DNA from: an uncultured Candidatus Saccharibacteria bacterium
Lineage (GTDB): Bacteria > Patescibacteriota > Minisyncoccia > Phycocordibacterales > PALSA-1337
NCBI GenBank assembly: GCA_964358975.1
Contig: CAYHQT010000001.1
Span: 1 to 32,199 of the forward strand
Direction: 5' to 3'
Length of the DNA stretch: 32,199 nt
The notes under the pieces were generated by a model. It made no database searches. It worked only from the letters and a program-made list of their open reading frames with translations, and was not told the origin of the DNA. The translations under genes and the position numbers were made by a program. Below are positions 7,425-32,199 of the stretch, piece after piece (position 1 is the first letter of the stretch; the number at the start of each line of letters is the position of its first letter).

Positions 7425-7479
7425 GGGGTGATATAGATGTGAGATATATGCTCCATAAATTCGCGCTAATAAAGATTCT

Positions 7480-7508: not shown

Positions 7509-7536
7509 TCAGTTATTGGTTAAATACAACATATAA

Positions 7537-8157
7537 ATGAAATACATTGATTTCTATGGACAATTCAAAGATTTCCCATTTATTAACATCAACGATGTTA
7601 AAACGGCGTTTCCAGACTATGAACCCAGACGCATGTATGAATGGCAAAAGGCCGGATATATAAGGAAAGTTGCCAGGAGTTTCTATGTATTTAATGATAG
7701 AAAATTGAACGAAGACGATCTCTGCCTGATATCAAACAAACTTCGCGAGCCTTCCTATATAAGTCTGGAATATGCTCTTAGCCAGTATTCCTTGATACCG
7801 GAAACGGTATTTGTACGTACGTCCATAACTACCAAGAAGACCGCCTCTTTTGAGACTGTTATAGGAAATTTCAGTTATCAATCCGTCAAAAAGACGTTAT
7901 TTTTCGGTTATGTTCTCCAAGGTCAGAAAAAGTCAAAATATAAATTTGCAGAACCGGAGAAGGCGATCCTGGATTTTCTCTACTTGCGTTCTGATATCAA
8001 GGATGGAAATGATATAGAAAGCTTAAGGATCAACGCGGATATATACGAGGAAATCATTGATGAAGAAAAGTTGGACAAATACTTGGGTATTTTTCAGCTT
8101 GTCACTTTGAATGAAAAGGTCGCTTTGCTCAGGGAATACATAAAGAAACATGATTAA
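7537..8157 (+). CDS. abiEi: AbiEi-family antitoxin (type IV TA, winged-helix N-terminus)
   Basis: 206 aa, of a size and N-terminal pattern typical of AbiEi_4-like proteins. It overlaps the downstream AbiEii gene by 8 nt (ATGATTAA). Confidence 0.7.
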   Translation: MKYIDFYGQFKDFPFININDVKTAFPDYEPRRMYEWQKAGYIRKVARSFYVFNDRKLNEDDLCLISNKLREPSYISLEYALSQYSLIPETVFVRTSITTKKTASFETVIGNFSYQSVKKTLFFGYVLQGQKKSKYKFAEPEKAILDFLYLRSDIKDGNDIESLRINADIYEEIIDEEKLDKYLGIFQLVTLNEKVALLREYIKKHD

Positions 8158-8920: not shown

Positions 8921-8925
8921 TCAAT

Positions 8926-8971
8926 AAACTCTTTGGACTATGTGGTCATGGTGCGGAATTGGACGGTGTAG
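8926..8971 (+). repeat. Solo copy of a dockerin-gene 3' end (last ~46 nt plus stop); approximate left edge
   Basis: aactctttggactatgtggtcatggtgcggaattggacggtgtag closely matches 7380-7424 (a few mismatches), the end of the 5031-7424 gene. It begins ~5 nt after the abiEii stop and has no ORF body upstream. Confidence 0.9.
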
Positions 8972-9846: not shown

Positions 9847-9852
9847 TAATAA

Positions 9853-9912
9853 AGGGATGGCAGAGTGAACTCTCTCGACTATGTGGTGATGGTGCGGAAT
9901 TGGACGGTGTAA
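9853..9912 (+). repeat. Solo copy of a dockerin-gene 3' end (~60 nt, ends in TAA)
   Basis: gatggcagagtgaactctctcgactatgtggtgatggtgcggaattggacggtgtaa aligns to the ends of the dockerin ORFs (e.g. 4328-4387). It starts ~7 nt after the HEPN stop. Confidence 0.9.
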
Positions 9913-11217: not shown

Positions 11218-11267
11218 GAATCAACTCTCTAGACTATGTGGTCATGGTGCGGAATTGGACACTATAA
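11218..11267 (+). repeat. Solo copy of a dockerin-gene 3' end (~50 nt, diverged last codons, in-frame TAA)
   Basis: gaatcaactctctagactatgtggtcatggtgcggaattggacactataa. It starts ~9 nt after the preceding stop codon. Confidence 0.85.
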
Positions 11268-11300: not shown

Positions 11301-11311
11301 TGTGCTATAAT
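11301..11311 (+). promoter_or_regulatory. Extended -10 box TGTGCTATAAT, 6 nt upstream of ATG 11318 (leaderless)
   Basis: TATAAT 11306-11311, gcgcgc, then ATG. The same 19-mer aaaagtgtgctataatgcg recurs at 25342-25360. Confidence 0.6.
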
Positions 11312-11317
11312 GCGCGC

Positions 11318-11716
11318 ATGAATATAGATAGTATAGAATCAAAAGCGACCGAACTGGCTCACAAATACAATCTGGACATGATCGTCCTTTTCGGTTCTCG
11401 TGCCGATAATACCGCTACTTCCAAAAGCGATGTGGATATTGCTTATACAAAAAAAGAATCTCTTTCTTTCGAAGATCAGTTATCGCTGGGCAGTGAATTG
11501 GCTCCTCTTTTCGGCACCGAAGCCGTGGATGTTGTCTATTTGAATAGAACATCACCGGTATTCATGTATCAAATAATGAAAAAAGCCAAACTTCTGTTTT
11601 CGAAGAGTTCAATGTCATTTTCTAACCTTTTTTCTTACGCCATAAAAAGACTTCATGAAAACATGTTTTTGTATGATTTGAAGCTTGATAGATTGCGCGC
11701 GGAGTACGGCGTATAA
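11318..11716 (+). CDS. mntA: MNT-type nucleotidyltransferase antitoxin
   Basis: LFGSRADNTATSKSDVDIAY. The start was moved from the track's TTG 11255, which lies inside the solo repeat, to ATG 11318 just after the promoter box. Confidence 0.85.
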   Translation: MNIDSIESKATELAHKYNLDMIVLFGSRADNTATSKSDVDIAYTKKESLSFEDQLSLGSELAPLFGTEAVDVVYLNRTSPVFMYQIMKKAKLLFSKSSMSFSNLFSYAIKRLHENMFLYDLKLDRLRAEYGV

Positions 11717-12204: not shown

Positions 12205-15105
12205 ATGCCAATATTCCAGAGAATACTTTTCAAAGATATTATCAAAACCGAACACGGCATTGTCCTCTTACTTTCCAGTTTCATTCTCGTCACCACTCTC
12301 ATTGGTCAAAGTTGGAATGATTTTGCCTTGATTGCCGACCAGACCATTCAATCTATTCCAGCGCATACTCAACTAGCTCAAGTTAGCAGTCCCTCGTCGT
12401 TCTTCTCTTTCGCTTACGCTCAGGATCAGAACTCCTCTGGACAATTAGCCCAAGGGCTAATTGGCTGGTGGAAGTTTGACGAGGGCTCCGGCACGACCGC
12501 GGGGGATTCAAGCGGGAATGGAAATAATGGGACGCTGGTGAATTTTCCTACGAATAATTCTGGATGGATCGGAGGAGCCCTCTCTTTTGACGGGGTGGAT
12601 GATTATGTAAATGTTCCTGCTGTTAATTCGTTTTCCGCTAATGCTCCGATGACAATTAGCGCATGGTTCAAACCGGCCACAATCAATACTGGTGGTTCAG
12701 TGAAGTGCATTGTCTGTATCCCTAATCAAACATATGATGCCGCGGGAATAGGATATTTAAACAATAATCTAAGCTTCGCAATCGGCACTGAAACCTATGA
12801 TACCGGCGGAGTAAATGGAGGCAGCATAGTGGCGAATAAGTGGTATTTTATAACAGGAACATTCAACGGAACTGTGCAGAAACTTTATCTTAATGGTGCG
12901 TATGTAAATCAAAGTTTATCCGCGACATTAAATGCTTTTTCTTCATTAAAAATTGGCGGAAACGGAGGTGGTACTCGTTATTTCAAAGGTTCTCTCGACG
13001 ACGTCCGCGTCTACAACCGTGCCCTTTCCCAAGACGAGATCACTCAGCTCTATGCTCTTGGTTCCGCTCAAACGCCTTCCGACACCACCGCTCCTTCGGT
13101 GCCCACATCTTTTTCTGCCACAGCCATATCTTCCTCCCAAATCAATCTTTTCTGGACTGCTTCTACCGATAATACGGTCGTAACCGGTTACAAAATATAC
13201 AGAGGAGGAACGCAGGTCGGGACTTCAGCCACTAACTCATATTCTGATACTGGTCTTACCGCGGATACTTTATACTCGTACACCATTTCCGCTTACGATG
13301 CTGCCGGAAACATATCTTCACAGTCTTCCTCGGCTTCCGCTACCACACAACCCGCTTCTGTTTCCATCTACACTCTTACCGTTTCCAAATCAGGCACTGC
13401 CGCCGGCACAGTTTCTGGTGGTTCAATCAATTGCGGCTCTACTTGCGTCCAATCAAACATTACGGCAGGCACATCAATCACTCTAACCGCCGTTCCTAAC
13501 TCCAACTCCACTTTTACCGGCTGGTCTGGAGGCGGATGTTCTGGAACAGGAACTTGCTCTGTAACCGTTAACTCCGATTCAATCATAACTGCCACATTTA
13601 CCCAAAACCAGACTCAAGCTTCGGGTAATAAGTATATTACCCCCAATGGCGCTGGATTAAAGGATGGTTCGGACTGGGCAAATGCCTATGCCGGATTGCC
13701 TGCCTCGGGAACTCTGCAACGAGGAGCGACATATTATTTTTCAGCCGGAACATACGTAATCCCCTATACATTTTATAGCCTGAAACACAAATTTAATGAC
13801 CCTAATGACGGCACAAAAGTAATTACGATAAAGAAAGCAACTGCCGCGGAGCACGGCACGGATGTCGGCTGGCAGACAAGTTACGGAGGAATGAGCATCT
13901 GGACAGCTTCAGCAGGGGAGGGCACACATGCCATGCTTTGGTTCATTACGGACTACTATGTATTTGACGGCGGTTCAAGGGATCAATGCATACTTGACGC
14001 GAATAATACCGTCGAAGGACAAGCAGGGTTTATTCGGACTGACGGGTCGCATATTACCATTTCAAATTGCACGATTACAAAATATCTCGAATCTAAAGTC
14101 GTGCTCAATGGGGGTTCATACAATACGTTTTCACATTTATATTTTATAAACAACTATAAAAGCGATATTTTTTATCTTTGGGGGAGCTATAACACTATCA
14201 GCTATAACGAAGTGGACGGGTCAACGGAGCCTGCCGATCCCAATCCATCCTCGGGGAATCACGCGGACTTTGTTCAGACATTTGATATTAATACCCCGGG
14301 AACTATAGCTACTGATAATCTGATCGAATACAATTATGTTCATGATTCTCCTACACGCCAGTTATTTATGCTCTCGCAAATGCATTCCTCCTCTCGTTTT
14401 GAAAACTGGACATTTAGGAACAATATCTTTGCAAACACAGCGCCTGGATTTTCAGCGACAGTTGGCATAAACCTCTATAATAATATCTTTTATAATGTCG
14501 GCACTCTAAGCCATACCTATGCCGCATTTATCGGCCTGGGTTCCATTGCTTTTAATAATGCATTTTTATCCGGAACCGCCGGCCTTCTTTATTCTGGAGG
14601 GGCTAACCCAAATATCGATTATAACTATTTCGCTAATATTACAAATAATTATGCCGCACCAAGCTATTTTAATGTAAGTAGCATCGGAACACATAATATT
14701 TTGGGAGGAACTCCTGATTTTGTAAATGAAGCTCTGCAGGATTTTCATTTAAAACCAGGCAGCAGGATTATAGATGCGGGCATTGCTCCCGCAATATCTT
14801 TCGTTGATTATGATGGGGTTTCTCGCCCCCAAGGCTCGGCTTGGGACATTGGCGCTTACGAATACTATTCAGGCCAGTCGGTTACTCCACCTGTTTCAAA
14901 TCCAGTAAATAGTTTACCGATCACACCCGTCACTCCTCCTACCCTTATCATCGGCGACTTCAATAACGACGGCATAGTCAATTCCATTGACCTTTCTCTC
15001 ATGATTACCGCCTGGAATACGAGCAACACTATTTATGACCTCAACAGAGATGGAGCAGTCAACTCTCTGGATTATGTGATGATGGTAAGGAATTGGACGG
15101 TGTAA
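12205..15105 (+). CDS. Giant surface protein: TM leader - LamG - Fn3 - B-repeat-like Cys domain - beta-helix - dockerin
   Basis: 966 aa with the family leader (..EHGIVLLLSSFILVTTLIGQSW..ADQTIQSIP). LamG: GLIGWWKFDEGSGT...LDDVRVYNRALSQDEI. Fn3: APSVPTSFSATAISSSQINLFW. Divergent InlB-B-repeat-like domain: YTLTVSKSGTAAGTVSGGSINCGSTC...FTGWSGGGCSGTGTCSV. The beta-helix ends in SRPQGSAWDIGAYEY and is followed by the dockerin. Confidence 0.9.
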   Translation: MPIFQRILFKDIIKTEHGIVLLLSSFILVTTLIGQSWNDFALIADQTIQSIPAHTQLAQVSSPSSFFSFAYAQDQNSSGQLAQGLIGWWKFDEGSGTTAGDSSGNGNNGTLVNFPTNNSGWIGGALSFDGVDDYVNVPAVNSFSANAPMTISAWFKPATINTGGSVKCIVCIPNQTYDAAGIGYLNNNLSFAIGTETYDTGGVNGGSIVANKWYFITGTFNGTVQKLYLNGAYVNQSLSATLNAFSSLKIGGNGGGTRYFKGSLDDVRVYNRALSQDEITQLYALGSAQTPSDTTAPSVPTSFSATAISSSQINLFWTASTDNTVVTGYKIYRGGTQVGTSATNSYSDTGLTADTLYSYTISAYDAAGNISSQSSSASATTQPASVSIYTLTVSKSGTAAGTVSGGSINCGSTCVQSNITAGTSITLTAVPNSNSTFTGWSGGGCSGTGTCSVTVNSDSIITATFTQNQTQASGNKYITPNGAGLKDGSDWANAYAGLPASGTLQRGATYYFSAGTYVIPYTFYSLKHKFNDPNDGTKVITIKKATAAEHGTDVGWQTSYGGMSIWTASAGEGTHAMLWFITDYYVFDGGSRDQCILDANNTVEGQAGFIRTDGSHITISNCTITKYLESKVVLNGGSYNTFSHLYFINNYKSDIFYLWGSYNTISYNEVDGSTEPADPNPSSGNHADFVQTFDINTPGTIATDNLIEYNYVHDSPTRQLFMLSQMHSSSRFENWTFRNNIFANTAPGFSATVGINLYNNIFYNVGTLSHTYAAFIGLGSIAFNNAFLSGTAGLLYSGGANPNIDYNYFANITNNYAAPSYFNVSSIGTHNILGGTPDFVNEALQDFHLKPGSRIIDAGIAPAISFVDYDGVSRPQGSAWDIGAYEYYSGQSVTPPVSNPVNSLPITPVTPPTLIIGDFNNDGIVNSIDLSLMITAWNTSNTIYDLNRDGAVNSLDYVMMVRNWTV

Positions 15106-15611: not shown

Positions 15612-15616
15612 TTTTA

Positions 15617-15695
15617 ACTCCCTCGATGACGTGCACATCTACTCTCGCGCCCTGTCGGCCAACAAAGTGAAGCAGTTGTATAATCTGGGGAGATA
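15617..15695 (+). repeat. Solo 3' end of a LamG-repeat gene (encodes NSLDDVHIYSRALSANKVKQLYNLGR*)
   Basis: It aligns with the last codons of 30..626 (IDDVRVYNRALTGIEVKQLYNIGR*) and 15751..17907. It starts 6 nt after the hicA stop and has no ORF body upstream. Confidence 0.85.
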
Positions 15696-15703
15696 GGGGA
15701 GCC

Positions 15704-17913: not shown

Positions 17914-20676
17914 ATGTTTTCATCTATCAAAATATTTATTAAGACTGAATACGGTATAGCTATTTTACTGTCCAGTTTTATTTTAGCTCTCACCCTCATC
18001 GGCCAGTCTTGGAATGATTTTGTTTTAGTTGCTGACCAAACAATCCAATCCATTCCTTCCTCCGCCAGCTGGCGGAATACCCAACTAGCTTCCGCTGAAG
18101 GCACTGATTTACTAACACAAGGGTTAGTTGGATGGTGGAAATTTGACGAGGGGAGCGGGACGACGGCGGGGGATGCGAGTGGCGGGGGGAATGTAGGGAT
18201 GTTTGTTAATGAACCGGCATGGGTTTCTATCACAAAGGCGAAAGTGGGGAATGGAGCGGTGCAGTTTAATGGTATTAACAATTACATATCAGTCGGAACC
18301 TTGGACTCATTTGGTGCCTCCAATGGTCAAACCCAAATGCAACAGGGCGTTACAATATCTCTTTGGCTAAAGACGACCAATAACTCAAGTATAATGACAT
18401 TGGTTGGTAACAGATCGCTCGGGCTCTCTCCAGGATTTGGTGTATCGTTGAATAGTGGTTTTTACGGAATGGTTCCCGGATCGATAAGAGTCAGTTGGTC
18501 GCAATCTTCTAATTACGGGTCATCATTCGCTTTTAACGCCAACAGATTGATAAACGACGGAAATTGGCATCTTCTAACCGTGGTAATCAAAATGCCCGGC
18601 ACACAGCAAATCTGGATTGATGGTACAAGCCGAAATGTTAGTATTGAACGTGATAGTTTTAGCACATACCAAACATGGTCTATCACTCCGTCGCTTGGAA
18701 TTGGCGCGGATATTATGAGTGCAACTACGGAGAACTATTTCTTGGGATTAATTGACGACGTCCGCGTTTACAACCGTGTCCTGTCAGCGGATGAAATAAG
18801 CCAACTCTATGCTCTTGGAGACAGCACTGTTGCTCCTGCCAATACCTCATCCCCATCAAGCCCTCTTTCTGTCACGACCGTGGCCGCAGCTCCAACCACT
18901 TACACTCTTACCGTTTCAAAGTCAGGAAGTGGCACAGGCGCTGTCACTGGCGGATCAATTTTCTGCGGTTCCACTTGTTCTCAATCCAGTATCACTTCAG
19001 GAACTTCAATCACCCTTTCCGCTACCCCAACATCAGGTTCGACCTTTACGGGTTGGAGCGGGGGAGGGTGTTCGGGAACTGATGTATGCCTGGTCACGCT
19101 TAACGCAGATACAAGCATACGGGCTACCTTTAGCACAGCATCAACACAGATTCCAGCCGGCGCTGACGTATATGTTGCGGCTAACGGCAATGATTCAACA
19201 TGCGCTAGAAACAATGTCACGAAGCCGTGCCTTACGCTTAGCAGAGCTTACACTGTATCTCAAGCGGGGGATGTCATAGAAATATCCGGTGGGACATATC
19301 CTGATCAGACCATACCGAAGCTATCCAAGGGAACCGCGATTGTAACATTCGAGCCGGCGTCTGGAGCGTCTGTAATTTTAGGAAGCGTTAATATTTATGC
19401 CAGTTATGTGGAATTGCGGAACATGGCGTCATCAGGAAGAATAGGGATAAATCCCGTAGCGACTGACTATCCATCAGGCACCAATCATATAACTCTGCGT
19501 AATATGAATGCTGAAAGCCTGGGCATCGTTGCTGAAGATGTTCTAGTTAAAGGCGGAAATTTCGGCGGATTTGACGCGTGTGACGCAAGCAAGCCTGAAG
19601 ATATTGTCCAAATTTGGGAAACGAGCAGGTCGGGGAATTGGTATGCTTCTTCAAGAGTTACAATTGATGGAGCGGTTATACATGATGTAACCGACCACAA
19701 CAATGCCTGTTCGGATGTGCCACCTCCAGCCCAAGGACGACATGTTGACTGCATGCAAATATTGTCCGGACATTTTATAACGGTCAGAAATTCTGTTTTC
19801 TATAATTGTGCAACGAGTGATATTATTGCCCGTCCGTTTCGTGTGGGATTAGATAATCTTTTGATTGAAAATAATTTTATGCAAGCAGTAATGAATCCTG
19901 GTTTAGCTTTAAATTTGGGAGACGGGTCGGATGTCTTTGGCGGCACAAATATTGTTAGATACAATACGATTTTTGGAGCGGCTGGAAGATGTTCTACTCC
20001 GGGCTGTCTTCAATTTTACGGTAATATCATAAATGCCGGTTACTGTCCGACTAATGTCAATGCGGTTTTTGATCATAATGTATTTATTTCTGGCTTGTCC
20101 AATCTCTCCAGTGCGTATCTGTGCGGTACCAATTTTAAACAAGGCAATCCTTCTTTCGTTGGACCCACGCCGAGTTCCTCATATTTAAACGGTATTATTC
20201 CGAATTATCATCTTGCGGCTAATGATGTGGTGGCGCTCGATTCCGGAGACCCGACGCGTTATCCGGCAACTGACATTGACGGTCAAACCCGTTTTTTTGG
20301 TTTAACTCCTGATGCTGGAGCAGATGAATACACAGGAAGTGGGGGAGTCACTCTCACAAACGGTCTCTGCTCCACCACTCTCAATCAGTGTACAACAGGA
20401 ACATTCTCCGACCTTGCCGACACCTCCGCTAACTACCTCTGGTCATGCATGGGTTCCAACGGCGGTACTACCGCTTCCTGTAGTTTGCCTATCACACCAG
20501 TTACCCCCCCCACTCCAACCACCGGCGACTTCAACGCTGACGGCATAGTCAACTCCATAGACCTCTCTCTCATGATTACCGCCTGGAATACGAGCAACGC
20601 TACTTACGACCTTAACAGAGACGGCAGAGTGAATTCTCTAGATTATGTGATTATGGTGCGGAATTGGAGTATGTAG
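17914..20676 (+). CDS. Giant surface protein: TM leader - LamG - B-repeat-like Cys domain - beta-helix - 4-Cys module - dockerin
   Basis: 920 aa. It starts 6 nt after the upstream stop, so it is probably co-transcribed. It carries the leader, the LamG signature, YTLTVSKSGSGTGAVTGGSIFCGSTC..FTGWSGGGCSGTDVC, NGLCSTTLNQC..YLWSC..ASCSLPI, and the dockerin. Confidence 0.9.
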   Translation: MFSSIKIFIKTEYGIAILLSSFILALTLIGQSWNDFVLVADQTIQSIPSSASWRNTQLASAEGTDLLTQGLVGWWKFDEGSGTTAGDASGGGNVGMFVNEPAWVSITKAKVGNGAVQFNGINNYISVGTLDSFGASNGQTQMQQGVTISLWLKTTNNSSIMTLVGNRSLGLSPGFGVSLNSGFYGMVPGSIRVSWSQSSNYGSSFAFNANRLINDGNWHLLTVVIKMPGTQQIWIDGTSRNVSIERDSFSTYQTWSITPSLGIGADIMSATTENYFLGLIDDVRVYNRVLSADEISQLYALGDSTVAPANTSSPSSPLSVTTVAAAPTTYTLTVSKSGSGTGAVTGGSIFCGSTCSQSSITSGTSITLSATPTSGSTFTGWSGGGCSGTDVCLVTLNADTSIRATFSTASTQIPAGADVYVAANGNDSTCARNNVTKPCLTLSRAYTVSQAGDVIEISGGTYPDQTIPKLSKGTAIVTFEPASGASVILGSVNIYASYVELRNMASSGRIGINPVATDYPSGTNHITLRNMNAESLGIVAEDVLVKGGNFGGFDACDASKPEDIVQIWETSRSGNWYASSRVTIDGAVIHDVTDHNNACSDVPPPAQGRHVDCMQILSGHFITVRNSVFYNCATSDIIARPFRVGLDNLLIENNFMQAVMNPGLALNLGDGSDVFGGTNIVRYNTIFGAAGRCSTPGCLQFYGNIINAGYCPTNVNAVFDHNVFISGLSNLSSAYLCGTNFKQGNPSFVGPTPSSSYLNGIIPNYHLAANDVVALDSGDPTRYPATDIDGQTRFFGLTPDAGADEYTGSGGVTLTNGLCSTTLNQCTTGTFSDLADTSANYLWSCMGSNGGTTASCSLPITPVTPPTPTTGDFNADGIVNSIDLSLMITAWNTSNATYDLNRDGRVNSLDYVIMVRNWSM

Positions 20677-20684
20677 GGTACAAA

Positions 20685-20695
20685 TGTGCTATAAT
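20685..20695 (+). promoter_or_regulatory. Extended -10 box TGTGCTATAAT, 6 nt upstream of ATG 20702 (leaderless)
   Basis: TATAAT 20690-20695 begins 14 nt after the dockerin-gene stop (20674-20676), followed by gctggc and ATG. Confidence 0.6.
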
Positions 20696-20701
20696 GCTGG
20701 C

Positions 20702-21130
20702 ATGGAAGGTAAAAGATTAACAGATGAACAAAGACAAGAGATCATCTCTCTAATGCAATCACGAGGGGCTATTGTCGGCTATCTATTCGGCTCATATGCC
20801 CGTGGCACAGCAGGACCTTTGAGTGATATTGATGTTGGTGTGGCTTTTCCGGAGACAATACCGAAGAATACCCAAGACACGCTCATCGAAGAGATCCGCA
20901 CTGGTTTGGAAAGAAAATTTGGAGGTAGAGACAAAGCTGATGTTTTGAATGTACCAGAACTTAAAAATCCATTACTCCGATACATTGTCACTTTGGGAGA
21001 AGGTCAAATACTATTTTCGGATGATCAATCTCTTCATAATAGATTGGCTAATTACGCTCTGCGTGAATATGAGGACACGAGGTCACTTCGATCAATTCAA
21101 AGTAAAGCTCTAGAGCATTTATTCGCGTAA
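20702..21130 (+). CDS. mntA: MNT-type nucleotidyltransferase antitoxin
   Basis: LFGSYARGTAGPLSDIDVGVAF. The start was set at ATG 20702; the track start 20684 lies inside the promoter box. Confidence 0.85.
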   Translation: MEGKRLTDEQRQEIISLMQSRGAIVGYLFGSYARGTAGPLSDIDVGVAFPETIPKNTQDTLIEEIRTGLERKFGGRDKADVLNVPELKNPLLRYIVTLGEGQILFSDDQSLHNRLANYALREYEDTRSLRSIQSKALEHLFA

Positions 21131-21438: not shown

Positions 21439-21531
21439 TGGAATACGAGCAACACTATTTACGACCTTAATAGAGATGGTATCGTTAATTCTCTGGATTA
21501 TGTGATGATGGTAAGGAATTGGAGTATGTAA
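21439..21531 (+). repeat. Solo copy of a dockerin-gene 3' end (93 nt; encodes WNTSNTIYDLNRDGIVNSLDYVMMVRNWSM*)
   Basis: It aligns to 20584-20676 and 15013-15105. It begins 3 nt after the HEPN-remnant stop and has no ORF body upstream. Confidence 0.9.
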
Positions 21532-21694
21532 TGAAGTCTCCCGGATATTGAAAGCTTTTGCTCTGCCGACGGGGGTGAGAGGGTGATGGAAAAATGGGAA
21601 ATTGGGAGATCATAAATTCTGGGACTAGACTCGAATATTGTACACTAGAGTAGCAATAATTGACCATATTTTGTTAGTATGCTAGGCTAAAAAC

Positions 21695-22834
21695 ATGTAT
21701 ATACCAAGGTTTCCGAAAATCGAAGACAAAATAGGAATTGGAAAGGTTCTAGTTATTTATGGTGCAAGACAAGTAGGTAAGTCATTTTTGGTCAAGAAAT
21801 ATCTGGAAAAGGTTTCTAGAGAAACTCCAACTCTGAAACAATTATTTTTCAATGGAGAAGATGTCAATGTTCAAGCTATTTTTTCTTCAATGAATTTGAA
21901 AACACTTGATGAAGCGGTTGGGGATGCTGAACTCATGGTGTTGGATGAAGCACAAGTCATAAGAAATGTCGGGATCTCACTCAAATTACTTGTTGACACG
22001 AAACCGAGGTTGAAAATTATTGTTACAGGGTCTTCCTCGTTTGAACTTTCCGGCCAGATAGGAGAACCATTGGTCGGAAGAATGAATGTTATCAATCTTC
22101 TGCCTTTATGGGAAAGAGAAATAAAGGAAGGGGGACTTATGGATTATGTCACAGGACTTGATTTTGCGTTGCGCTTCGGACGTTATCCGGAGGTATTTCT
22201 GGAATCGGTCATTGAAAGGAAGAAAGAGATTGTTACGAATATCGTCAATGGTTATCTTTTGAAAGATATCTTGGCATTCGAGCAGGTGAAAAATTCAAAG
22301 TTAATTCTTGATCTATTGAAACTTCTGGCTTATCAAGTCGGAAATGAAGTTTCCGTAAATGAAATAGCCAATAATCTTTCTATCGGTAGAAATATAGTCA
22401 ATAGATATTTGGATTTACTTGAACAAAATTTTATTATTTTTCCACTCCATCCCTTTGCTAAAAATCTGAGGAATGAAATACGTAAAAAAGAGAAATATTA
22501 CTTTTATGATTTGGGTATCAGGAATGCTCTGATTGAGAATTTCGATGCGATCGATACTAGAGGTGATATCGGGGCACTCTGGGAGAATTATTTGATTGTA
22601 GAAAGACGCAAGCGCAATGCCTATACTGACCCTTACAAATCCGTCTATTTTTGGCGCAAATTATCTGGAGCAGAAGTAGATTTTGTCGAAGTATATAGCG
22701 ACCATATCGATGGTTATGAGTTTTCGTTGAAGGAAAAGGCTGGTAATAAATCGAAAAGATCTTGGTTGGAGAACTATAACAACGCTACATGGATAAATAT
22801 TCATAAAGAGAATTACAAAGATTTTATTTCCTAA
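21695..22834 (+). CDS. AAA+ ATPase (AAA_14 / DUF4143-type ATP-binding protein)
   Basis: 379 aa. Walker A: IYGARQVGKS. Walker B: LMVLDEAQ. The C-terminal region is typical of DUF4143 proteins. A possible TGcTAGGCT box lies 6 nt before the ATG. Confidence 0.75.
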   Translation: MYIPRFPKIEDKIGIGKVLVIYGARQVGKSFLVKKYLEKVSRETPTLKQLFFNGEDVNVQAIFSSMNLKTLDEAVGDAELMVLDEAQVIRNVGISLKLLVDTKPRLKIIVTGSSSFELSGQIGEPLVGRMNVINLLPLWEREIKEGGLMDYVTGLDFALRFGRYPEVFLESVIERKKEIVTNIVNGYLLKDILAFEQVKNSKLILDLLKLLAYQVGNEVSVNEIANNLSIGRNIVNRYLDLLEQNFIIFPLHPFAKNLRNEIRKKEKYYFYDLGIRNALIENFDAIDTRGDIGALWENYLIVERRKRNAYTDPYKSVYFWRKLSGAEVDFVEVYSDHIDGYEFSLKEKAGNKSKRSWLENYNNATWINIHKENYKDFIS

Positions 22835-22848
22835 CGGTAGATAGTAAT

Positions 22849-22957
22849 TCTAATGACCACCGCCTGGAACACGAACAACGCTACTTATGACCTTAACAGA
22901 GACGGCAGAGTGAACTCTCTGGACTATGCCATCATGGTGCGGAATTGGACGGTGTAG
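22849..22957 (+). repeat. Solo copy of a dockerin-gene 3' end (109 nt; encodes LMTTAWNTNNATYDLNRDGRVNSLDYAIMVRNWTV*)
   Basis: It aligns to 4279-4387 and 20568-20676. It begins ~14 nt after the ATPase stop. Confidence 0.9.
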
Positions 22958-24376: not shown

Positions 24377-24450
24377 ATGCCACTATCTATCCAAACATCA
24401 AATAAGGCATTCCTCAATTCATTAATCGCCGATCAAACAATCCATTCCTT
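24377..24450 (+). repeat. Degraded remnant of the leader-type gene 5' end (TM-coding part deleted)
   Basis: atgccactatctatccaaaca...atcgccgatcaaacaatccattcc parallels 27871-27891 (atgtccccatctatccaaaca) joined directly to the ADQTIQSIP-coding segment (28010-28040). Confidence 0.65.
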
Positions 24451-24537
24451 TATAGGTGCGAAATTGAATGGTGTATGGCCATGTCCATCTTGAGGTATTT
24501 CTTTACGATTACTACAAAATATGTAAAAATAGTAAAT

Positions 24538-25364: not shown

Positions 25365-25664
25365 ATGTCGGAATTCGAAATAATCAAACAGAAAATAGCT
25401 CTGCAAAAAGAGTATTTACATAAAACCTATGGAGTGGAAGAAATAGGTGTTTTCGGCTCATTTGCCCGCGGAGACAATGATGAGAATAGCGATATAGATG
25501 TTTCAGTTGAGCTCAATCAGAAAGTACCCGTGGGACTTTTTGAATTTGCCGGTATGAAATTTTATCTTGAGGATTTACTGGGAAGAAAAGTTGATTTGGT
25601 GATAAAGAGTGGAATAAAAGCGCTTATAAAAGACAGGATTTTAAGTCAATTAGTCATCATATGA
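25365..25664 (+). CDS. mntA: MNT-type nucleotidyltransferase antitoxin (short classical form)
   Basis: [20 protein letters not shown]. 4-nt ATGA overlap with the HEPN gene. The track start 25356 lies within the -10 box. Confidence 0.85.
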
Positions 25665-26011
25665 GTGAAAAAAGAAATGTAAAATTATTTATTCAGGATT
25701 CTTTCGATGCTATTGATAAGATCAATGGTTATGTTTCTAATATTAAAGACGCTAATGAACTGAAAAATTCTGGGCAAACTTATGATGCGGTGATGATGAA
25801 TTTCATCGTTATCGGTGAGGCAATTAAAAATATTTATGAAGAAGTCCGTGAAAATTATCCGGATGTAGAATGGCGACAAATCATGGCAATGCGCAATATT
25901 TTAATACACGAGTATTGGGGAGTAGATGAAAAAGTAGTATGGAACGCGATTGGAAGAAATTTACCTGAATTAAAGGAAATTCTTACAAAGATTAGGAATA
26001 GTTTGAATTGA
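25661..26011 (+). CDS. hepT: HEPN (DUF86/HepT) toxin
   Basis: 116 aa with R-x4-H in [14 protein letters not shown]. Confidence 0.85.
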
Positions 26012-26034
26012 ACAATGTAGGTAAATAGAATTGT

Positions 26035-26289
26035 ATGTTCTCATCCCTAAAAACACCCCTAAAACCCGAACACGGTATCGCCCTCTTACTGTCCTGTTTC
26101 ATCCTCTCTCTCACCCTCATCAGTCAAAGCTGGAATGATTTCATATTAGTCGCCGACCAAACCATCCAATCCATTCCTTCCTCCGCCAACTGGCGGAATA
26201 CCCAACTTGCTTCGGCCGAAGGCGCTGATACATTAATTGCCCTCTCCCTAATGATCACCGTATGGAACCATAGCAACACCATAGGTTGA
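26035..26289 (+). pseudogene. Leader-dockerin minigene: family 5' leader fused directly to an internal dockerin fragment
   Basis: The 84-aa ORF has aa 1-66 equal to the family leader (MFSSLKTPLKPEHGIALLLSCFILSLTLISQSW..ADQTIQSIPSSANWRNTQLASAEGADT). It then continues LIALSLMITVWNHSNTIG*, which corresponds to dockerin SIDLSLMITAWNTSNTI. LamG, beta-helix and the dockerin 3' half are all missing. Confidence 0.8.
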
Positions 26290-26293
26290 AATA

Positions 26294-26302
26294 TGCTATA
26301 CT
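26294..26302 (+). promoter_or_regulatory. Extended -10 (TGcTATACT), 6 nt upstream of ATG 26309 (leaderless)
   Basis: TATACT 26297-26302, gagagc, then ATG. It starts only a few nt after the truncated dockerin fragment. Confidence 0.5.
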
Positions 26303-26308
26303 GAGAGC

Positions 26309-26593
26309 ATGACAATACATGAGTTTATAAAGCAAAGACCTTATCTAGTTTGGTATGTGAAAGATTTGGATAGTCTTTCCGAAGAATCCATTGTCGAACA
26401 TGTTTTGAACTTTGGAGATTGGAACGACGTGCAGGGAATGATAAAGATATTAGGCATGGGAAAAACCGCCCACATATTCACGGAAAAATCCTCGCCTGAC
26501 AAATTCGGCAGGCAAAATTATCGTCCGGAGATCAAGAATTATTTCCAATTGTATTTCAATAAATATGCACCACAAGGAAATCTTTACCAATGA
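26309..26593 (+). CDS. Small conserved hypothetical protein, putative cognate antitoxin of the downstream NTase
   Basis: 94 aa. The pattern LVWYVKDLDSLSEESIVEHVLNFGDWNDVQGMIKILG is one I recall seeing upstream of short AbiEii-like NTases, but I cannot name the family with confidence. It overlaps the next ORF by 29 nt. Confidence 0.45.
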   Translation: MTIHEFIKQRPYLVWYVKDLDSLSEESIVEHVLNFGDWNDVQGMIKILGMGKTAHIFTEKSSPDKFGRQNYRPEIKNYFQLYFNKYAPQGNLYQ

Positions 26594-27179
26594 GCAGAAT
26601 AAATTACTACCACTAGTCGCCGAATTTTCCAAAGATTTCGGCTTGGTTGGTGGCACGGCCATCGCTCTTCATTTGGGACATCGCAGGTCTATTGATTTCG
26701 ACCTTTTCTCTGAAAAGGAATTCGGCAATCAAAGCCTCCTAAATAAGATTGTCGCTTTTGGCGCACCCGATCAAATTATTGTCAATAAATTGGATGAGCT
26801 CACGCTTGTTATCAAAGGTGTAAAAATGACTTTCTTTCATTATCCATACAAGATCATATACTCCGAAAATTTTGGTTACAGGATAAAGATGCCGGATCTT
26901 TTGACTCTCTCCGCCATGAAAGCTTTTGCCTTGGGACAACGAGCCAAATGGAAGGACTATGTGGATTTATATTTTATTATCAAAGACTATTTTTCGATCA
27001 GTCGGATTTCGGAAAAGAGCCGGGAAATTTTCGGTAATATGTTCAATGAAAAACTTTTTAGAAGCCAACTGGCTTATTTTGACGGCATAAATTACAAAGA
27101 AGCTGTGGAATTTTTGCCGGGATTTGAGGTTTCCGACGAAATTGTTAAAAAGAGACTGACGGAGTTTAGTATTGATTAA
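26565..27179 (+). CDS. Short AbiEii/AbiGii-like nucleotidyltransferase, putative toxin
   Basis: 204 aa with FGLVGGTAIALHLGHRRSIDFDLFS (GG.A....R.S.D.D core). Confidence 0.65.
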   Translation: MHHKEIFTNEQNKLLPLVAEFSKDFGLVGGTAIALHLGHRRSIDFDLFSEKEFGNQSLLNKIVAFGAPDQIIVNKLDELTLVIKGVKMTFFHYPYKIIYSENFGYRIKMPDLLTLSAMKAFALGQRAKWKDYVDLYFIIKDYFSISRISEKSREIFGNMFNEKLFRSQLAYFDGINYKEAVEFLPGFEVSDEIVKKRLTEFSID

Positions 27180-27187
27180 TCATACTT

Positions 27188-27817
27188 ATGAAGAAGATTT
27201 TTGCTTTTATTGATGTCCAGAATACGGAGACGACAACTCGCCGAATATTAGGTTTTTTCGTTGATTGGAAGAAGTTATTTAATTTCCTGAAAACTGATTG
27301 GAAATGTGAAAAAGTATTCTTTTATTCAGGAATAGACGCTGGGGATTCAGAGTCGGAAGAAGAATTTAAAAAGTTAGAAGATAACGGATGTATTGTTAGA
27401 TCAAAACTTGTTTTCGCGTATAAAAACAGAGATAAGAATATAGATGTAGAATGTCCAAAATGTGGAAATAAGTTTGAAGAGGTTATAGATATGGGGTACA
27501 ATCGAAAATCGAATTGTGACGTGGATCTTACCGTTGACGCGATGGAATGCGCTGGATCTGATACGGAATTTTATATTTTTACCGGTGATGGAGATTTCGA
27601 GTATCTAATTAAAAAAGTCATTGAAAAAGGAGCGATTGTTCATATTGTATCGAGCGCGAAGAGGGTAAAAAGCGGACCTAGATATTATACATCTAGATTT
27701 TCCACGAAATTGAGGAAACTGACTGAAGAAGAAGGGAAGCCTGTGGATTTTCTTAATATTAATAACTTGAAATTTAGAATAAAAAAGGAAAAGGCCGCGA
27801 AGCGCGACCTTTTCTAG
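27188..27817 (+). CDS. NYN-domain (LabA/PIN-like) putative ribonuclease with inserted Cys pair (CPKCG, half of a possible zinc-ribbon-like element)
   Basis: 209 aa. N-terminal IFAFIDVQN and C-terminal IFTGDGDFEYLIKKV NYN motifs, with a CPKCGNKFEEV insert. It starts 9 nt after the NTase stop. Confidence 0.65.
   Translation: MKKIFAFIDVQNTETTTRRILGFFVDWKKLFNFLKTDWKCEKVFFYSGIDAGDSESEEEFKKLEDNGCIVRSKLVFAYKNRDKNIDVECPKCGNKFEEVIDMGYNRKSNCDVDLTVDAMECAGSDTEFYIFTGDGDFEYLIKKVIEKGAIVHIVSSAKRVKSGPRYYTSRFSTKLRKLTEEEGKPVDFLNINNLKFRIKKEKAAKRDLF
27793..27814 (+). terminator. Rho-independent-type terminator overlapping the last NYN codons
   Basis: The stem ggccgcg-aag-cgcgacc has one mismatch and is followed by tttt (27810-27813). 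Confidence 0.5.
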
Positions 27818-27870: not shown

Positions 27871-30474
27871 ATGTCCCCATCTATCCAAACATTCATAAAG
27901 ACTTTAGCTAAAACACCTCTCAAACCCGAACACGGCCTCGCCCTCTTACTGTCCTGTTTCATTCTCGCTATCACCCTCATCAGTCAAAGCTGGAATGACT
28001 TCGTCTTAGTCGCCGACCAAACAATCCAATCAATTCCTTCCTCCGCCAGCTGGCGGAATACTCAACTAGCCCAAGTCGGTGGTCCCTCGTCGCAAAGCTC
28101 CTCGGGACAATTAGCCCAAGGGCTAATTGGCTGGTGGAAGTTTGATGAGGGAAGCGGGACGACTGCGGGGGATGCGAGCGGAAATGGGAATAACGGGACG
28201 CTGGTGAATGGGCCGGCGTGGACGACAGATAGTAAGGTGGGAGGTGGGGCGGTAAGTTTTGATGGTACGAACAATTATATTAATGTTAGTTCAGCTCCAT
28301 CTCTGGAGAGTTTAGGACCACTTACATATTCTGCGTGGATATATCCAATCAGTTGGGGTCAGGGTAGTCAGGGGTATTTATTTTCAAAATCTACAGGTTT
28401 ACGTTTTCAGTTGCTTAGCACATATAGCCAGATAAGATTTTATGTAGATTATTCAACGGCTAATCTCGCAGTTGGCTCTGCAGTAGGTTCCATTTCATTG
28501 AATAATTGGGTGCACGTTGTTGTAACATGGGATGGATCATCCTCAGCTTCAAACACGCATATTTATCTTAACGGGGTTGAAACAACAAACTATCAAATAA
28601 GGCAAAATGGCGACGGGACTAGGTCTCCAATAGTGACAAGGCCTTTTATTATTGGCGCAAGTGATCCTATCTACGGATCAGGTAGATTTTTCAGTGGAAA
28701 AATGGACGATGTTCGTGTTTATAATCGCATTTTATCAACAGGTGAAATTATGGACTTATATAATTTCACTTATGTTTCTACTGCCAGTCCAGTTCAAGAA
28801 CCAATCATCGTTCAAGCCCCGTCGATTCAAACTTCACCAACCCAGCTTCAACCCCCTTCTGTAACTCTTGCAGTTGGTGTTTACAGGGTTAACCAAGATG
28901 GTACTGGTGATTTCAAGACGGTTCAAACTTGTGTGGACGCGGTCGCGCCTAATTCAACATGCCTCGTTTACCCAGGTAACTATAAAGAATTGGTTACTAT
29001 TACCAAATCTGGGAGCATACAAAGCCCAACAATAATTAAAGGTCTAAACAAGCCGAACATATCTTTTCCAGATGGATCCAATGCGTACTTAAATAATCAA
29101 GATCAAACTTCAAAGGTTAAAGGGTTTGTTGTAAAAGCAGATAATATTAAAATAATTAACTTTGAATTCACGGATATCACCACAAAACAGCAAGGAGCCA
29201 TATATTTAGACAATCGCAGTAATATAGATATTGAAGATAATTATTTCCATGAATTGAATCCCCCAAGGATAGTCAATAATAATTGCCTATGGTGTGGTTG
29301 GGGTTCAGTACGGGGTGTTGGTTATAATATTAAATTTATTGGTAATACAGTATGGCGTGTTGAAGGTGTGGGTATAGCAATTACAGGCAATAATTGGCTA
29401 GTGGAAAATAATAATGTTTCTCATGGTAATATTTTTGCTTGGAATTATGCGGAAAAAGCTTTAAGGGATGGTCTTAACGGATCGATGTGGGACCAGAATT
29501 ATATAGTAGTAGGTGATACTGATGCTCTTAGGTTTTTTGGCAATGGACATATTATAAAAAATAATTATTTTCATGATTATTTGCTCGGGGAGACGGCTTG
29601 GGCTGAAAGAAAAACTGTGCAGAATCCAAATCCTTCTCCACACATGGACTGTATGCAAACATTTTCAAATGGAGATCCTCCATGGCAGGGTGCGACCAAT
29701 GTAATCATTGAGGGAAATTTTTGTTTTAATATTGGTACCCAATTTATCTTTATCTCTGATATAAACAATAAGAGCGATCATATCACGATTGTTAATAATA
29801 TATTCAAAAAAAATGGCGCGCACGGCATAGCGGTAAGTGGAATAGAATATCTTACACTCGCGAACAATATAATTGCCAATGTCAGTTATGCGGCCATTAG
29901 TGTTGGTAATTCCCCCAATTCAAAAATTATCAATAATATTATTTACTATGATTATTCTTCAGATGGTGTTTTTCGCATAGATCCTGTAATTGATGAAGTT
30001 TCTAAGGTTGGACTGACTTTAGATTATAATTTACATTTTCCAAATACGAGAGTTACTTTTCCGGGAGTGTATGATACGAATGGAATTTTTGGAAAAGATC
30101 CTAAGTTTATAGATCCAAACGGAAATAACTTTCACATTCAGAATAGTTCTGTTGCGATTGATTCAGGATCGGATATGAGCTCATATTTATCAAATGACAA
30201 AGACGGCATCTCCCGCCCCCAAGGCTCCGCCTGGGACATCGGCGCCTATGAATATGTCGGTTCTGGTGGAGTTGTCACGCCTCCAATTATTTCATCAACT
30301 CCTCCTCCCGCCATCATCATCGGCGACTTTAACAAAAACGGCATAGTCAATTCTATAGACCTTTCTCTAATGGTCACCGCATGGAATACGAACAACACCA
30401 CTTACGACCTTAATAGGGATGGCATAGTGAACTCTCTCGACTATGTGATCATGGTGCGGAATTGGACGATCTAG
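27871..30474 (+). CDS. Giant surface protein: TM leader - LamG - beta-helix - dockerin
   Basis: Start set at ATG 27871 (MSPSIQTFIK..), supported by the parallel remnant at 24377; the track used GTG 27850. It has the leader, the LamG signature, NN[IW]-rich beta-helix repeats, SRPQGSAWDIGAYEY and the dockerin (DFNKNGIVNSID / DLNRDGIVNSLD). Confidence 0.9.
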   Translation: MSPSIQTFIKTLAKTPLKPEHGLALLLSCFILAITLISQSWNDFVLVADQTIQSIPSSASWRNTQLAQVGGPSSQSSSGQLAQGLIGWWKFDEGSGTTAGDASGNGNNGTLVNGPAWTTDSKVGGGAVSFDGTNNYINVSSAPSLESLGPLTYSAWIYPISWGQGSQGYLFSKSTGLRFQLLSTYSQIRFYVDYSTANLAVGSAVGSISLNNWVHVVVTWDGSSSASNTHIYLNGVETTNYQIRQNGDGTRSPIVTRPFIIGASDPIYGSGRFFSGKMDDVRVYNRILSTGEIMDLYNFTYVSTASPVQEPIIVQAPSIQTSPTQLQPPSVTLAVGVYRVNQDGTGDFKTVQTCVDAVAPNSTCLVYPGNYKELVTITKSGSIQSPTIIKGLNKPNISFPDGSNAYLNNQDQTSKVKGFVVKADNIKIINFEFTDITTKQQGAIYLDNRSNIDIEDNYFHELNPPRIVNNNCLWCGWGSVRGVGYNIKFIGNTVWRVEGVGIAITGNNWLVENNNVSHGNIFAWNYAEKALRDGLNGSMWDQNYIVVGDTDALRFFGNGHIIKNNYFHDYLLGETAWAERKTVQNPNPSPHMDCMQTFSNGDPPWQGATNVIIEGNFCFNIGTQFIFISDINNKSDHITIVNNIFKKNGAHGIAVSGIEYLTLANNIIANVSYAAISVGNSPNSKIINNIIYYDYSSDGVFRIDPVIDEVSKVGLTLDYNLHFPNTRVTFPGVYDTNGIFGKDPKFIDPNGNNFHIQNSSVAIDSGSDMSSYLSNDKDGISRPQGSAWDIGAYEYVGSGGVVTPPIISSTPPPAIIIGDFNKNGIVNSIDLSLMVTAWNTNNTTYDLNRDGIVNSLDYVIMVRNWTI

Positions 30475-30490: not shown

Positions 30491-30499
30491 TGCTAGAAT
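30491..30499 (+). promoter_or_regulatory. Extended -10 (TGcTAGAAT), 6 nt upstream of ATG 30506 (leaderless)
   Basis: TAGAAT 30494-30499, atagtc, then ATG. Confidence 0.5.
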
Positions 30500-30505
30500 A
30501 TAGTC

Positions 30506-32199
30506 ATGAGCATGAAGTTGGAATTTAGAATAAAGAATATGGGATTTTGGACAAGGATTATTTTTTTTGTCTTTATTCTAAATTCTATATTCCAAATTCC
30601 AACCACCTACGCCTCCGTTGTCTCCAAACCCTCTCAATACAATACCAATCTCAAATCCGGTCTTGTCGGCTGGTGGACTATGGATGGCGCGGATGTCGTG
30701 AATGGTGTGGCACTAGATAAGAGTGGCAATAATAATAACGGCAATCTTATAAACATCGCCACCACAACCTTTTATAAACCCGGTAAGATCGGTCAGGCTT
30801 TCAATTTTGACGGGGTGGATGATTATGTGAAATCAGGAACTATCAATGGAAGTTCTCTGACGACAATATCCTATTCATTTTGGATTAAAACTACCAAAAC
30901 AAGCGGAGGTAAAATTATAGTATGGGGAACTGTTGCCTGTTACATAAATGATACGGTGAAAAAAGTGAGTTGTACCGCCGACGGTATTACTAGTGGTTCG
31001 ACAGTTACTCTCGGTACTGTAAATAATGGTCAATGGCATCATCTCGTCTATGTCGTGAACGGCAATAGTCAAAATCTGTATTTAGATAGTGTTGTACAAA
31101 CTCCTGCTACGGAAACTCTAACTTCTCCAAATGATATAGTTTATATTGGAAGAACTGGTAGCACCTTAAGTCCGCTTAATGGCTCCCTCGATGATGTCAG
31201 TATTTATAATCGTGTTTTGACTATAACAGAAATCCGTCAGCTTTACAATCTCGGTCAAGCCAAAGTGAATGAAACGCCGACTACCAACACGAACATCAAT
31301 TCTGGTTTACTCGGCTGGTGGACATTTGATGGCAAGAATTCGACGACTAGTACCACGGCTGATGATACGAGTGGTCGCGGTCTGACTGCCACCTTGCATG
31401 ACGCGCCGTTCTTGCCGAAGAAGACGCCAGCAAAGATCGGGCAGGGACTAGCATTCGACGGCGTTAACAATTATGCTTCTTTAGCTTCCAACCCTCTCGC
31501 CGGGGTAATGACTGCCGCCAATTCAACTTGCGCTTGGGCGCTCATCAAAGACCCGAATATACTCGGCGCTGGTGCTTGGGACCAGACTATCTTAAATTTC
31601 CGAACGGATGCCAGCAACGGCGTTGTTATGTCTAATGACTATTCGAGCGGCGGAGACTTCGTGGCTTCGTACAGACTCGGCGGCATATTCTATGGTCTTA
31701 AATCCTCGACTGTGGTTTTCAAGAAAAACACATGGGTCCATGTCTGTTATGTCTGGAATGGTTCAGCTGTCACCCTCTACGCTAACGGCACCGCTCTCAC
31801 AGGTACCGCCTCCACTAACCCTATCGGCACAGCCAATGTCATCGGCGCTCTTGACGACACCCTCTCCGGTATTTGGAACGGCACCGTTGATGATATCCGC
31901 GTCTATTCCCGCGCCCTCACCGCCACCGAAGTTCGGGAAATCTACAATCAAGGCGTTTCGAAGGTCAATATTAGTCCTGTAAGGAGCTTGAATGGTACAG
32001 GGCTCGGCTCCGGCCTTGTCGGTTATTGGACTTTTGATGGTAAAGATACAAATTGGGCGACGGGGGTGACGAAAGATATGTCGGGGAATAATAACGGGCA
32101 ACTTTTGAATATGTCTACGACAACGAGTCCGACGCCGGGGAAGTTGGGGCAGGGGTTGAAGTTTGATGGGGTGAATGACAAAGTCAAAATGAGTACTGA
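30506..32199 (+). CDS. Secreted LamG-repeat protein, N-terminal part (runs off the 3' end of the window; absent from the ORF track)
   Basis: Hand translation from ATG 30506 gives an uninterrupted frame to nt 32199: MSMKLEFRIKNMGFWTRIIFFVFILNSIFQIPTTYA|SV..GLVGWWTMDGAD...LDDVSIYNRVLTITEIRQLYNLGQ..GLLGWWTFDGKN...VDDIRVYSRALTATEVREIYNQG..GLVGYWTFDGKD... It is paralogous to 15751..17907. The track ORFs at 31608..31982 (+) and the minus-strand ORFs here are shadows. Confidence 0.85.
   Translation, partial: MSMKLEFRIKNMGFWTRIIFFVFILNSIFQIPTTYASVVSKPSQYNTNLKSGLVGWWTMDGADVVNGVALDKSGNNNNGNLINIATTTFYKPGKIGQAFNFDGVDDYVKSGTINGSSLTTISYSFWIKTTKTSGGKIIVWGTVACYINDTVKKVSCTADGITSGSTVTLGTVNNGQWHHLVYVVNGNSQNLYLDSVVQTPATETLTSPNDIVYIGRTGSTLSPLNGSLDDVSIYNRVLTITEIRQLYNLGQAKVNETPTTNTNINSGLLGWWTFDGKNSTTSTTADDTSGRGLTATLHDAPFLPKKTPAKIGQGLAFDGVNNYASLASNPLAGVMTAANSTCAWALIKDPNILGAGAWDQTILNFRTDASNGVVMSNDYSSGGDFVASYRLGGIFYGLKSSTVVFKKNTWVHVCYVWNGSAVTLYANGTALTGTASTNPIGTANVIGALDDTLSGIWNGTVDDIRVYSRALTATEVREIYNQGVSKVNISPVRSLNGTGLGSGLVGYWTFDGKDTNWATGVTKDMSGNNNGQLLNMSTTTSPTPGKLGQGLKFDGVNDKVKMST

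Follow-up and report, generated by a model that had tools for sequence, protein, structure and literature searches.

In the window analysed here, i.e. the whole stretch of 32,199 nucleotides, an open reading frame of the + strand, beginning with an ATG at 26035 and ending at 26289, joins the leader of a local gene family directly to a piece of dockerin. The predicted translation of 84 aa was recovered, and this 84-codon minigene is also annotated by NCBI as a protein (P0001). This raises the question of how the minigene arose and of whether it still has a function. The original prediction, in which a family gene has been cut to its leader and a dockerin piece and ends at the promoter of the next cassette, describes the locus correctly. 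The mechanism proposed along with it, a reciprocal insertion product whose partner would lie at 21439, fared less well, as discussed below.

The leader part is complete. A nucleotide-level profile search for the family leader gave a full-length match at 26017-26225 (E 2.5e-62, covering profile positions 2-210). Intact relatives, P0124 (the gene in L014) and P0127, read ...QLASAEGADTL|TQGLVGWW, i.e. ...NTQLASAEGADTL|TQGLVGWWKFDEG. Since these proteins read through ADTL|, the minigene leader is complete to the L codon (26233-26235) and the body is missing from there. Judged from the profile and from the intact relatives, the leader, composed of a signal-anchor helix followed by ADQTIQSIP...QLASAEGADTL, therefore occupies 26035-26235. 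After GADTL|, the intact relatives go on with TQGLVGWWKFDEGSG whereas the minigene goes on with dockerin sequence. The minigene thus has the N-terminal signal-anchor leader (...ADQTIQSIP...QLA...) that characterises the local family, and in its 84 aa it lacks the LamG (Laminin_G_3) domain and the body of ~700-1100 residues. The leader itself is a mosaic. Its start and end resemble those of g17914 and of the gene in L014, whereas 26050-26210 shares 90.7% identity with the g27850 leader; at the amino acid level, identity to P0123-P0125 is 72-82%. An end point common to the minigene leader and to the leader fragment of L016 was considered and rejected, the L016 leader continuing, in decayed form, into TQGLVG when compared with intact L014.

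The leader is joined in frame to the dockerin piece at 26235/26236, with a microhomology of at most 2-3 nt (AT/ATT, ambiguous). From 26236 on, the minigene sequence, ATTGCCCTCTCCCTAATGATCACCGTATGGAACCATAGCAACACCAT, aligns to nt ~37-83 of the 156-nt dockerin end. The nucleotide profile of this end matches 26216-26282 (E 1.1e-5); judged by eye, homology extends from 26236 (dockerin nt ~34-37) to 26282 (nt 83). A type I dockerin comprises two tandem segments of ~22 residues, each made of a calcium-binding loop (DxNxDGxxxxxD) followed by a helix. Compared with this domain (PF00404), the piece at 26236-26282 (IALSLMITVWNHSNTI) holds helix 1 only: loop 1 and all of segment 2 are absent, so that both calcium-binding loops are missing. 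Among the fragments of the window, the minigene is the only one to retain a 5'-proximal dockerin piece, as had been proposed. The claim that it keeps the 5' half of the dockerin stands as regards the loss of the 3' half, but the piece is internal, the first ~36 nt (calcium loop 1) being lost as well. The piece is also the most diverged dockerin copy, with 70-77% identity to intact copies, as against 83-91% for intact copies among themselves, and with the last loop residue changed from D to A. Within it, a 7-nt direct repeat (ACCATAG..ACCATAG, 26264-26284) is found, the first copy of which stands in place of four consecutive consensus bases (TACG to CCAT); this repeat may represent a templated mutation. 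The alignment leaves 11 orphan nucleotides, AGGTTGAAATA (26283-26293), which contain the accidental stop codon TGA at 26287-26289, 4 nt upstream of the extended -10 box of the next cassette.

The sequences on either side of the minigene carry their own traces of rearrangement. Upstream, the gap of 23 nt between the HepT stop codon and the minigene ATG holds a 17-nt relic (26012-26028) left from the 3' terminus of a LamG-only gene (..NVGK* from ..YNMGK*), recognised by junction identity and blastn and directly adjoining the HepT stop codon. The 30 nt ending at the minigene start codon show 21/30 identity to the g15751-to-g17914 junction, including GGTAAATA, and blastn homology to the region upstream of g17914 begins at 26014. 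The GGTAAATA match supplies TAAATA (26022-26027), 7 nt before the minigene ATG, which is likely to be its -10 box; a consensus promoter scan gave TTGAAT-17-TAGAAT at 26003-26031. The presence of the LamG-only relic points to an ancestral local order MNT/HepT, LamG-only gene, family gene, AbiE-like cassette. Downstream, the expected promoter of the next cassette was borne out as a motif: the extended -10 sequence TGCTATACT (26294-26302) is followed, after 6 nt, by the ATG at 26309 (whole motif 26294-26311, + strand), and homology of the cassette to its copy in L025 starts at the same box, at about 26294. The motif TGNTAKRMT-N6-ATG occurs six times in the window, for 0.12 expected, always on the + strand and always at gene starts (4435-4452, 11303-11320, 20687-20704, 21680-21697, 26294-26311 and 30491-30508). 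Its spacing indicates that the true starts of two MNT genes are at 11318 and 20702 rather than at the longer ORF starts. On motif grounds, an extended -10 box 6 nt before the ATG suggests leaderless mRNAs.

The minigene stands in an array in which all genes lie on the + strand and fall into three classes. Family genes, which combine leader, LamG, beta-helix and type I dockerin (Pfam, ORFs), are found at 665-4387, 12205-15105, 17914-20676 and 27871-30474. LamG-only genes form the second class. Small cassettes in between form the third (NYN, AbiEi/AbiEii, MNT/HepT, HicAB, RelE-like, AAA_14/DUF4143). Family genes can be seen decaying in place. The pseudogene at 5041-7424 (g5114/6663, + strand) has lost the 5' part of its leader (only profile positions 42-210 remain) and shows a frame break between 6529 and 6663, and P0002 in L027 consists of the leader plus 35 aa before it is broken. 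LamG-only genes leave relics too, such as the 3' end at 15616-15696 (+ strand; ..NSLDDVHIYSRALSANKVKQLYNLGR; ..RALSANKVKQLYNLGR), which begins 4 nt past the HicA stop codon. The signal-anchor leader family is very narrow, with 12 matches among 1.84 billion representative proteins, whereas the adjacent cassettes have thousands of homologues.

Taken together, these data make it probable that the minigene represents a pseudogene, the relic of a large gene for a secreted surface protein, and that it was produced by at least two breaks within a strain-variable toxin-antitoxin island. The progenitor would have been a local family gene of ~2.7 kb, with signal-anchor leader, LamG, beta-helix and type I dockerin, flanked upstream by a LamG-only gene and downstream by the AbiE-like cassette. 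A first break would have removed everything from the end of the leader (...AEGADTL, 26235) to dockerin nt ~37, the frame being kept by chance. A second break would have removed dockerin nt 84-156, so that the ORF now reaches an accidental TGA 4 nt before the cassette promoter. The upstream LamG-only gene would have been deleted down to its last 17 nt, which bear the -10 box. Both minigene junctions would thus be deletions, and they would belong to an array-wide erosion in which family genes between toxin-antitoxin cassettes are deleted stepwise, their conserved ends being the last parts to remain recognisable. The retained promoter may well still drive transcription of the ORF. Its product of 84 aa, in which a membrane helix is followed by 17 dockerin-derived residues with no calcium loops, would be devoid of dockerin function.

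Some observations weigh against the relic reading. The ORF is intact and the promoter-like upstream sequence has been kept. The 3' junction could alternatively result from insertion of the AbiE-like cassette. Moreover, no strain with an intact gene at the minigene position was found, so that both breaks are inferred rather than observed. Exact-protein look-up, word-indexed search and a full HMMER search gave no uninterrupted orthologue; the search in relatives suggested by the original prediction yielded, as short proteins, only the minigene and the truncated P0002. The closest intact leaders, those of P0124 and P0127, are in other genomic contexts.

Two further leader-to-dockerin fusions show that the minigene is not an isolated case. 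A second and more decayed relic (24377-24478, + strand, 38-aa ORF MPLSIQTSNK...) consists of the leader start, the leader middle (..ADQTI.SIP) and the last ~24 nt of the dockerin. In L027, positions 151-273 comprise a 5' fragment of MNT, the leader middle (..ADQTIQSIP) and the last ~35 nt of the dockerin. These two relics have in common the junction ..CCATTCCTT|T.. (QSIP|VIMVRNW), which differs from that of the minigene, and they lie on opposite sides of homologous AAA_14/DUF4143 ATPase cassettes. A common junction in different contexts argues that the relics have been reshuffled via leader homology. The existence of two junction types argues that a family gene was cut to its conserved ends at least twice, with different break points. 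Repeated leader-to-dockerin fusion is the outcome to be expected of repeated internal deletions between functional neighbours.

More numerous are fragments that retain the dockerin end alone. Five solo 3' fragments of the window, all on the + strand, end at the family stop codon and begin 0-15 nt past the stop codon of the upstream cassette: dockerin nt 107-156 at 8922-8971, nt 96-155 at 9852-9912, nt 107-153 at 11218-11267, nt 64-155 at 21439-21531 (the partner proposed earlier, which is not reciprocal to the minigene) and nt 48-156 at 22849-22957. Three strain comparisons settle their origin. Firstly, L021 is 93% identical to window positions 7408-8926 and reads AbiEii-TGA-TCAATA, followed by a Pro/Thr (PT) linker and a whole dockerin. 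With the same left flank, the window shows dockerin nt 107-156 instead, which corresponds to a simple deletion of ~128 nt; fragment 8922-8971 is thus a deletion derivative of the longer L021 remnant. Secondly, in L013 the C-terminus of an intact family gene, P0127, precedes the MNT/HepT cassette that in the window follows only fragment 11218-11267. Thirdly, a block made of a dockerin end, a TAGGGGTACTTCTTTCTAACCGATAATTGTGATAATATGGAATTATT spacer and an MNT cassette is shared by the window, L019 and L016; the gene upstream of it differs in each of the three, and its fragments start at nt 107, 33 and 34, respectively. These comparisons show the fragments to be leftovers of a family gene that once stood before the downstream cassette and shrank stepwise. 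Differences between fragments and intact dockerins fall at third codon positions in 57 of 99 cases, without indels, which argues that the fragments are young relative to the divergence of the paralogues. The longest class of relics is that of solo complete dockerins located right behind a cassette stop codon (L016 2378-2563, a 61-aa ORF; L019 4429-4580). Two other candidates, L018 8148 and L022 1798, had been considered as 3'-truncated dockerins and belong to another protein family with a divergent dockerin. Campbell-type mobility of units composed of a cassette and its downstream fragment found no support either: the junction between cassette and downstream fragment differs among strains, and the link between a fragment and the cassette downstream of it is conserved.

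Among the alternatives to the relic reading, insertion of the AbiE-like cassette has to be considered for the 3' junction. The cassette (26309-27179, + strand; Pfam, homologue searches) encodes a DUF6922-like antitoxin and an AbiEii-type toxin. Its insertion, as a unit spanning 26294-27179, into a dockerin near ..NTI|YDL would leave the minigene as the left product, the right product being found in L025/L008. There, a 90%-identical cassette stands directly before a dockerin fragment, the start of which lies at nt 83 according to nhmmer, close to the end of the minigene piece at nt 83. The cassette is certainly mobile on evolutionary time scales: three alleles, 83-92% identical, are present in one aquifer (window, L001 and L025) with three different right-hand neighbours, and more than 7700 homologues (70-90% aa identity) occur across classes of Patescibacteria, where the cassette is found among other toxin-antitoxin cassettes and LamG genes. 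However, judged by eye the L025/L008 fragment starts at ~nt 88-92 (a GAC common to both partners makes the position ambiguous), so that the end points agree only within ~5-9 nt. As fragment starts span ~165 nt, the chance of such a coincidence was estimated at roughly 1 in 10. In addition, no target duplication, recombinase or terminal repeats accompany the cassette, the 11 nt that separate the dockerin piece from the promoter are not accounted for, and the informative strain pairs tie fragments to the downstream, not the upstream, cassette. The junction would result either from deletion of dockerin nt 84 to the end together with the spacer or from insertion of the cassette; on balance, the insertion with its right product in L025/L008 is considered unlikely.

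The same cassette has further surroundings that deserve mention. In an unrelated CPR genome (L034 2300-3480, JGI 3300049718), a homologous DUF6922/AbiEii cassette follows a LamG gene; next come a LamG 3' stub of ~50 nt (RALSASEIKQLYNMGKR) and MNT/HepT, i.e. the same architecture with another gene family. In other groundwater genomes (L028, at ~3110-3160 and ~4150-4200, L029 and L032), a ~46-nt repeat flanks the cassette on both sides. Its upstream copy contains a perfect 14-bp palindrome, GTTGAAATCAGATG-TTGA-CATCTGATTTCAAC, a possible terminator, REP-like element or recombination site.

Could the minigene be functional, either as a maintained small membrane-anchored peptide or as an empty acceptor site that captures bodies and cassettes by homologous recombination? 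The intact ORF and the retained promoter-like sequence would fit, and the leader differences are mainly synonymous: 10 of the 15 differences from the g27850 leader are at third codon positions, a bias that could reflect selection, recent origin or gene conversion. Recombination at conserved ends does occur in the array, as seen in the mosaic leader, in the switch of L001 at ~26389 (see below) and in the relic junction found in two contexts. Nevertheless, neither a homologous short protein nor any conserved counterpart was found among the 1.84 billion representatives. The dockerin piece has lost both calcium loops and has diverged further than any other copy, and the sibling fusions show obvious degeneration. 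By accident alone, the frame would be kept at such a junction in one case out of three. A Pfam scan of the 84-aa product detected no domain (by comparison, 7e-11 for g17914), and Rfam and tRNA scans gave no matches. A functional minigene is held to be improbable.

Still less probable is the proposal that the minigene and the 93-nt fragment at 21439 are the reciprocal products of an insertion at a single dockerin hot spot, WNTSNTI|YDL. It is true that both break points fall inside the same ~7 codons. However, when 26227-26289 and 21439-21531 are aligned to an intact dockerin, the breakpoints do not coincide, which essentially refutes the proposal. Fragment 21439-21531 corresponds to nt 64-155 and the minigene to nt ~37-83; instead of abutting, the two pieces overlap by 20 nt (TGGAACCATAGCAACACCAT vs TGGAATACGAGCAACACTAT), with 15/20 identities and hence 5 mismatches. 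Their order is also reversed: a simple insertion would leave the 5' piece first, but here the 3' piece at 21439 precedes it by 4.7 kb. A pair of attL/attR type would show abutting ends or an identical duplicated core, with the 5' piece before the 3' piece; fragment 21439 and the minigene show neither the core nor the order. Furthermore, in L019 the gene that lies upstream of 21439 in the window is followed by a different fragment, starting at nt 33. A hot spot received no support from a survey of fragment starts in the window and 27 related loci, in which ~18 independent junctions were numbered by dockerin nt. The unique starts, at about -30, -25, 1-5, 33, 34, 48, 51, 64, 74, 77, 88, 96, 106, 107, 107, 112, 123 and 134, are scattered without excess at nt 64-84. 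Those at 33/34 (L019, L016) are similar to the ~37 of the minigene, but not beyond what chance would give.

Finally, the idea that a leader read was fused to a dockerin read during assembly of this repeat-rich region can be set aside almost with certainty, since the sequence over both minigene junctions is identical in six samples/runs (ERZ1292629, ERZ1292632, ERZ1292635, ERZ1292640, ERR3858116 and ERR3858133) and in the NCBI contig, so that the chimera raised as a caveat in the original prediction is out.

These assemblies also place the minigene in its environment. Exact-protein look-ups traced the locus to metagenomes from well H43 in the Hainich aquifer (groundwater). Positions 25403-26546 are 100% identical to the window in independent assemblies L003-L006, and L002 differs from the window by one base in 5366 nt. 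Over more than 5 kb, as far as 26388, L001 is identical to the window. Beyond this position, its AbiE-like cassette is another allele, with 6-16% divergence (L001 5180-6068 vs window 26389-27300), and a family leader (MPLSIKIFRK...) follows directly after the cassette, without the NYN cassette of the window. The haplotype switch indicates a recombination break within the first gene of the AbiE-like cassette, and the difference from the window shows that array content varies among co-occurring strains.

One feature of the relics calls for an explanation beyond random deletion. Considering all relic junctions in the window, L016, L019, L021, L025 and L027, decay is polar: 30-190 nt of the 3' end are kept, as against usually 0-15 nt (rarely 33-43) after the upstream stop codon. 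No relic extends more than ~30 nt upstream of the dockerin, and any part of the leader is kept in only 3 of ~21 decayed genes. LamG-only relics (15616-15696, 26012-26028) and the LamG stub in L034 show the same 3' polarity. Random deletion alone does not account for it. Possible causes are selection against expression of an orphan signal-anchor peptide or a directed recombination mechanism. Retention of the 3' stubs because of a -35 box or a terminator was rejected, as the distance between stop codon and -10 box varies between 3 and over 100 nt and a search for terminators gave none. It can be proposed, though this is rather doubtful, that promoter-bearing toxin-antitoxin cassettes of Patescibacteria spread without integrase, via recombination at the conserved 3' ends (and leaders) of multicopy surface-protein genes, which they would displace, leaving 3' stubs behind. 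If this were true, the minigene would be a rare left-hand product. The cassette with its LamG stub in L034 has the same architecture.

The array can be compared with several known systems. The closest kind is that of hypervariable islands rich in toxin-antitoxin genes, with which it shares strain-variable content, surface paralogues decayed by deletion and relics between functional genes. In ANME-1, for instance, hotspots contain toxin-antitoxin operons with insertions and partial deletions (PMC13385816). The present array differs from such islands in the strong polarity of its relics, its co-oriented genes, its leaderless-type promoters and its location in an ultra-small genome of Patescibacteria type. 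Sedentary chromosomal integrons likewise have arrays of co-oriented small toxin-antitoxin cassettes, a recurring short sequence and strain-differing content. Their attC site is an imperfect inverted repeat which forms a hairpin when single-stranded. Here, in contrast, what recurs is the 3' end of a coding sequence, which varies in length and shows no potential to form a hairpin: six folds (three solo fragments, both strands) gave z values of -0.87 to +1.63 relative to shuffles, and folds of the minigene junction region gave -0.38 and -1.27. Moreover, the fragments go with the downstream, not the upstream, cassette, and the cassettes, uniform in orientation like the promoterless ones of integrons, bring promoters of their own, with extended -10 boxes located 6 nt upstream of the ATG. 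With no hairpin and with promoter-bearing cassettes, an attC reading was rejected. An integron array also adjoins attI and the gene for the tyrosine recombinase IntI; no recombinase or integrase domain was detected among 20 Pfam-scanned proteins of the 32-kb contig.

Likeness to attL/attR elements at tRNA genes lies in an intact gene end upstream and partial 3' copies downstream of inserted DNA. Here, however, the partial copies are not duplicates of the upstream end but are 83-92% identical to it, with paralogue-like differences; their starts are scattered, they shrink by deletion in sister strains, and no integrase was found. The template repeats of diversity-generating retroelements (DGRs), which are common in CPR bacteria, were considered as well, the fragments being non-coding 3'-end copies of a surface-protein gene. 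In a DGR pair, mismatches are confined to template adenines and a reverse transcriptase is encoded nearby. Where the fragments mismatch, they carry C 105, A 73, G 64 and T 49 times, i.e. 25% A vs 28% in the composition, and no reverse transcriptase was detected among the Pfam-scanned ORFs of the window. Since the mismatches show no adenine-specific pattern, this possibility was rejected.

In itself, the minigene is ordinary, a decayed gene with an open frame kept by chance, and its value is that of a marker. Together with ~18 sibling relics and with the strain comparisons, it marks a fast-turnover island in a Patescibacteria-type genome, where the large surface-protein paralogues disappear step by step and the toxin-antitoxin cassettes remain, being reshuffled among co-occurring strains. 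Such an island would be a useful natural system for the study of deletion bias and recombination in ultra-small genomes, and the 3' polarity of its relics is the single feature that might indicate a new mechanism.
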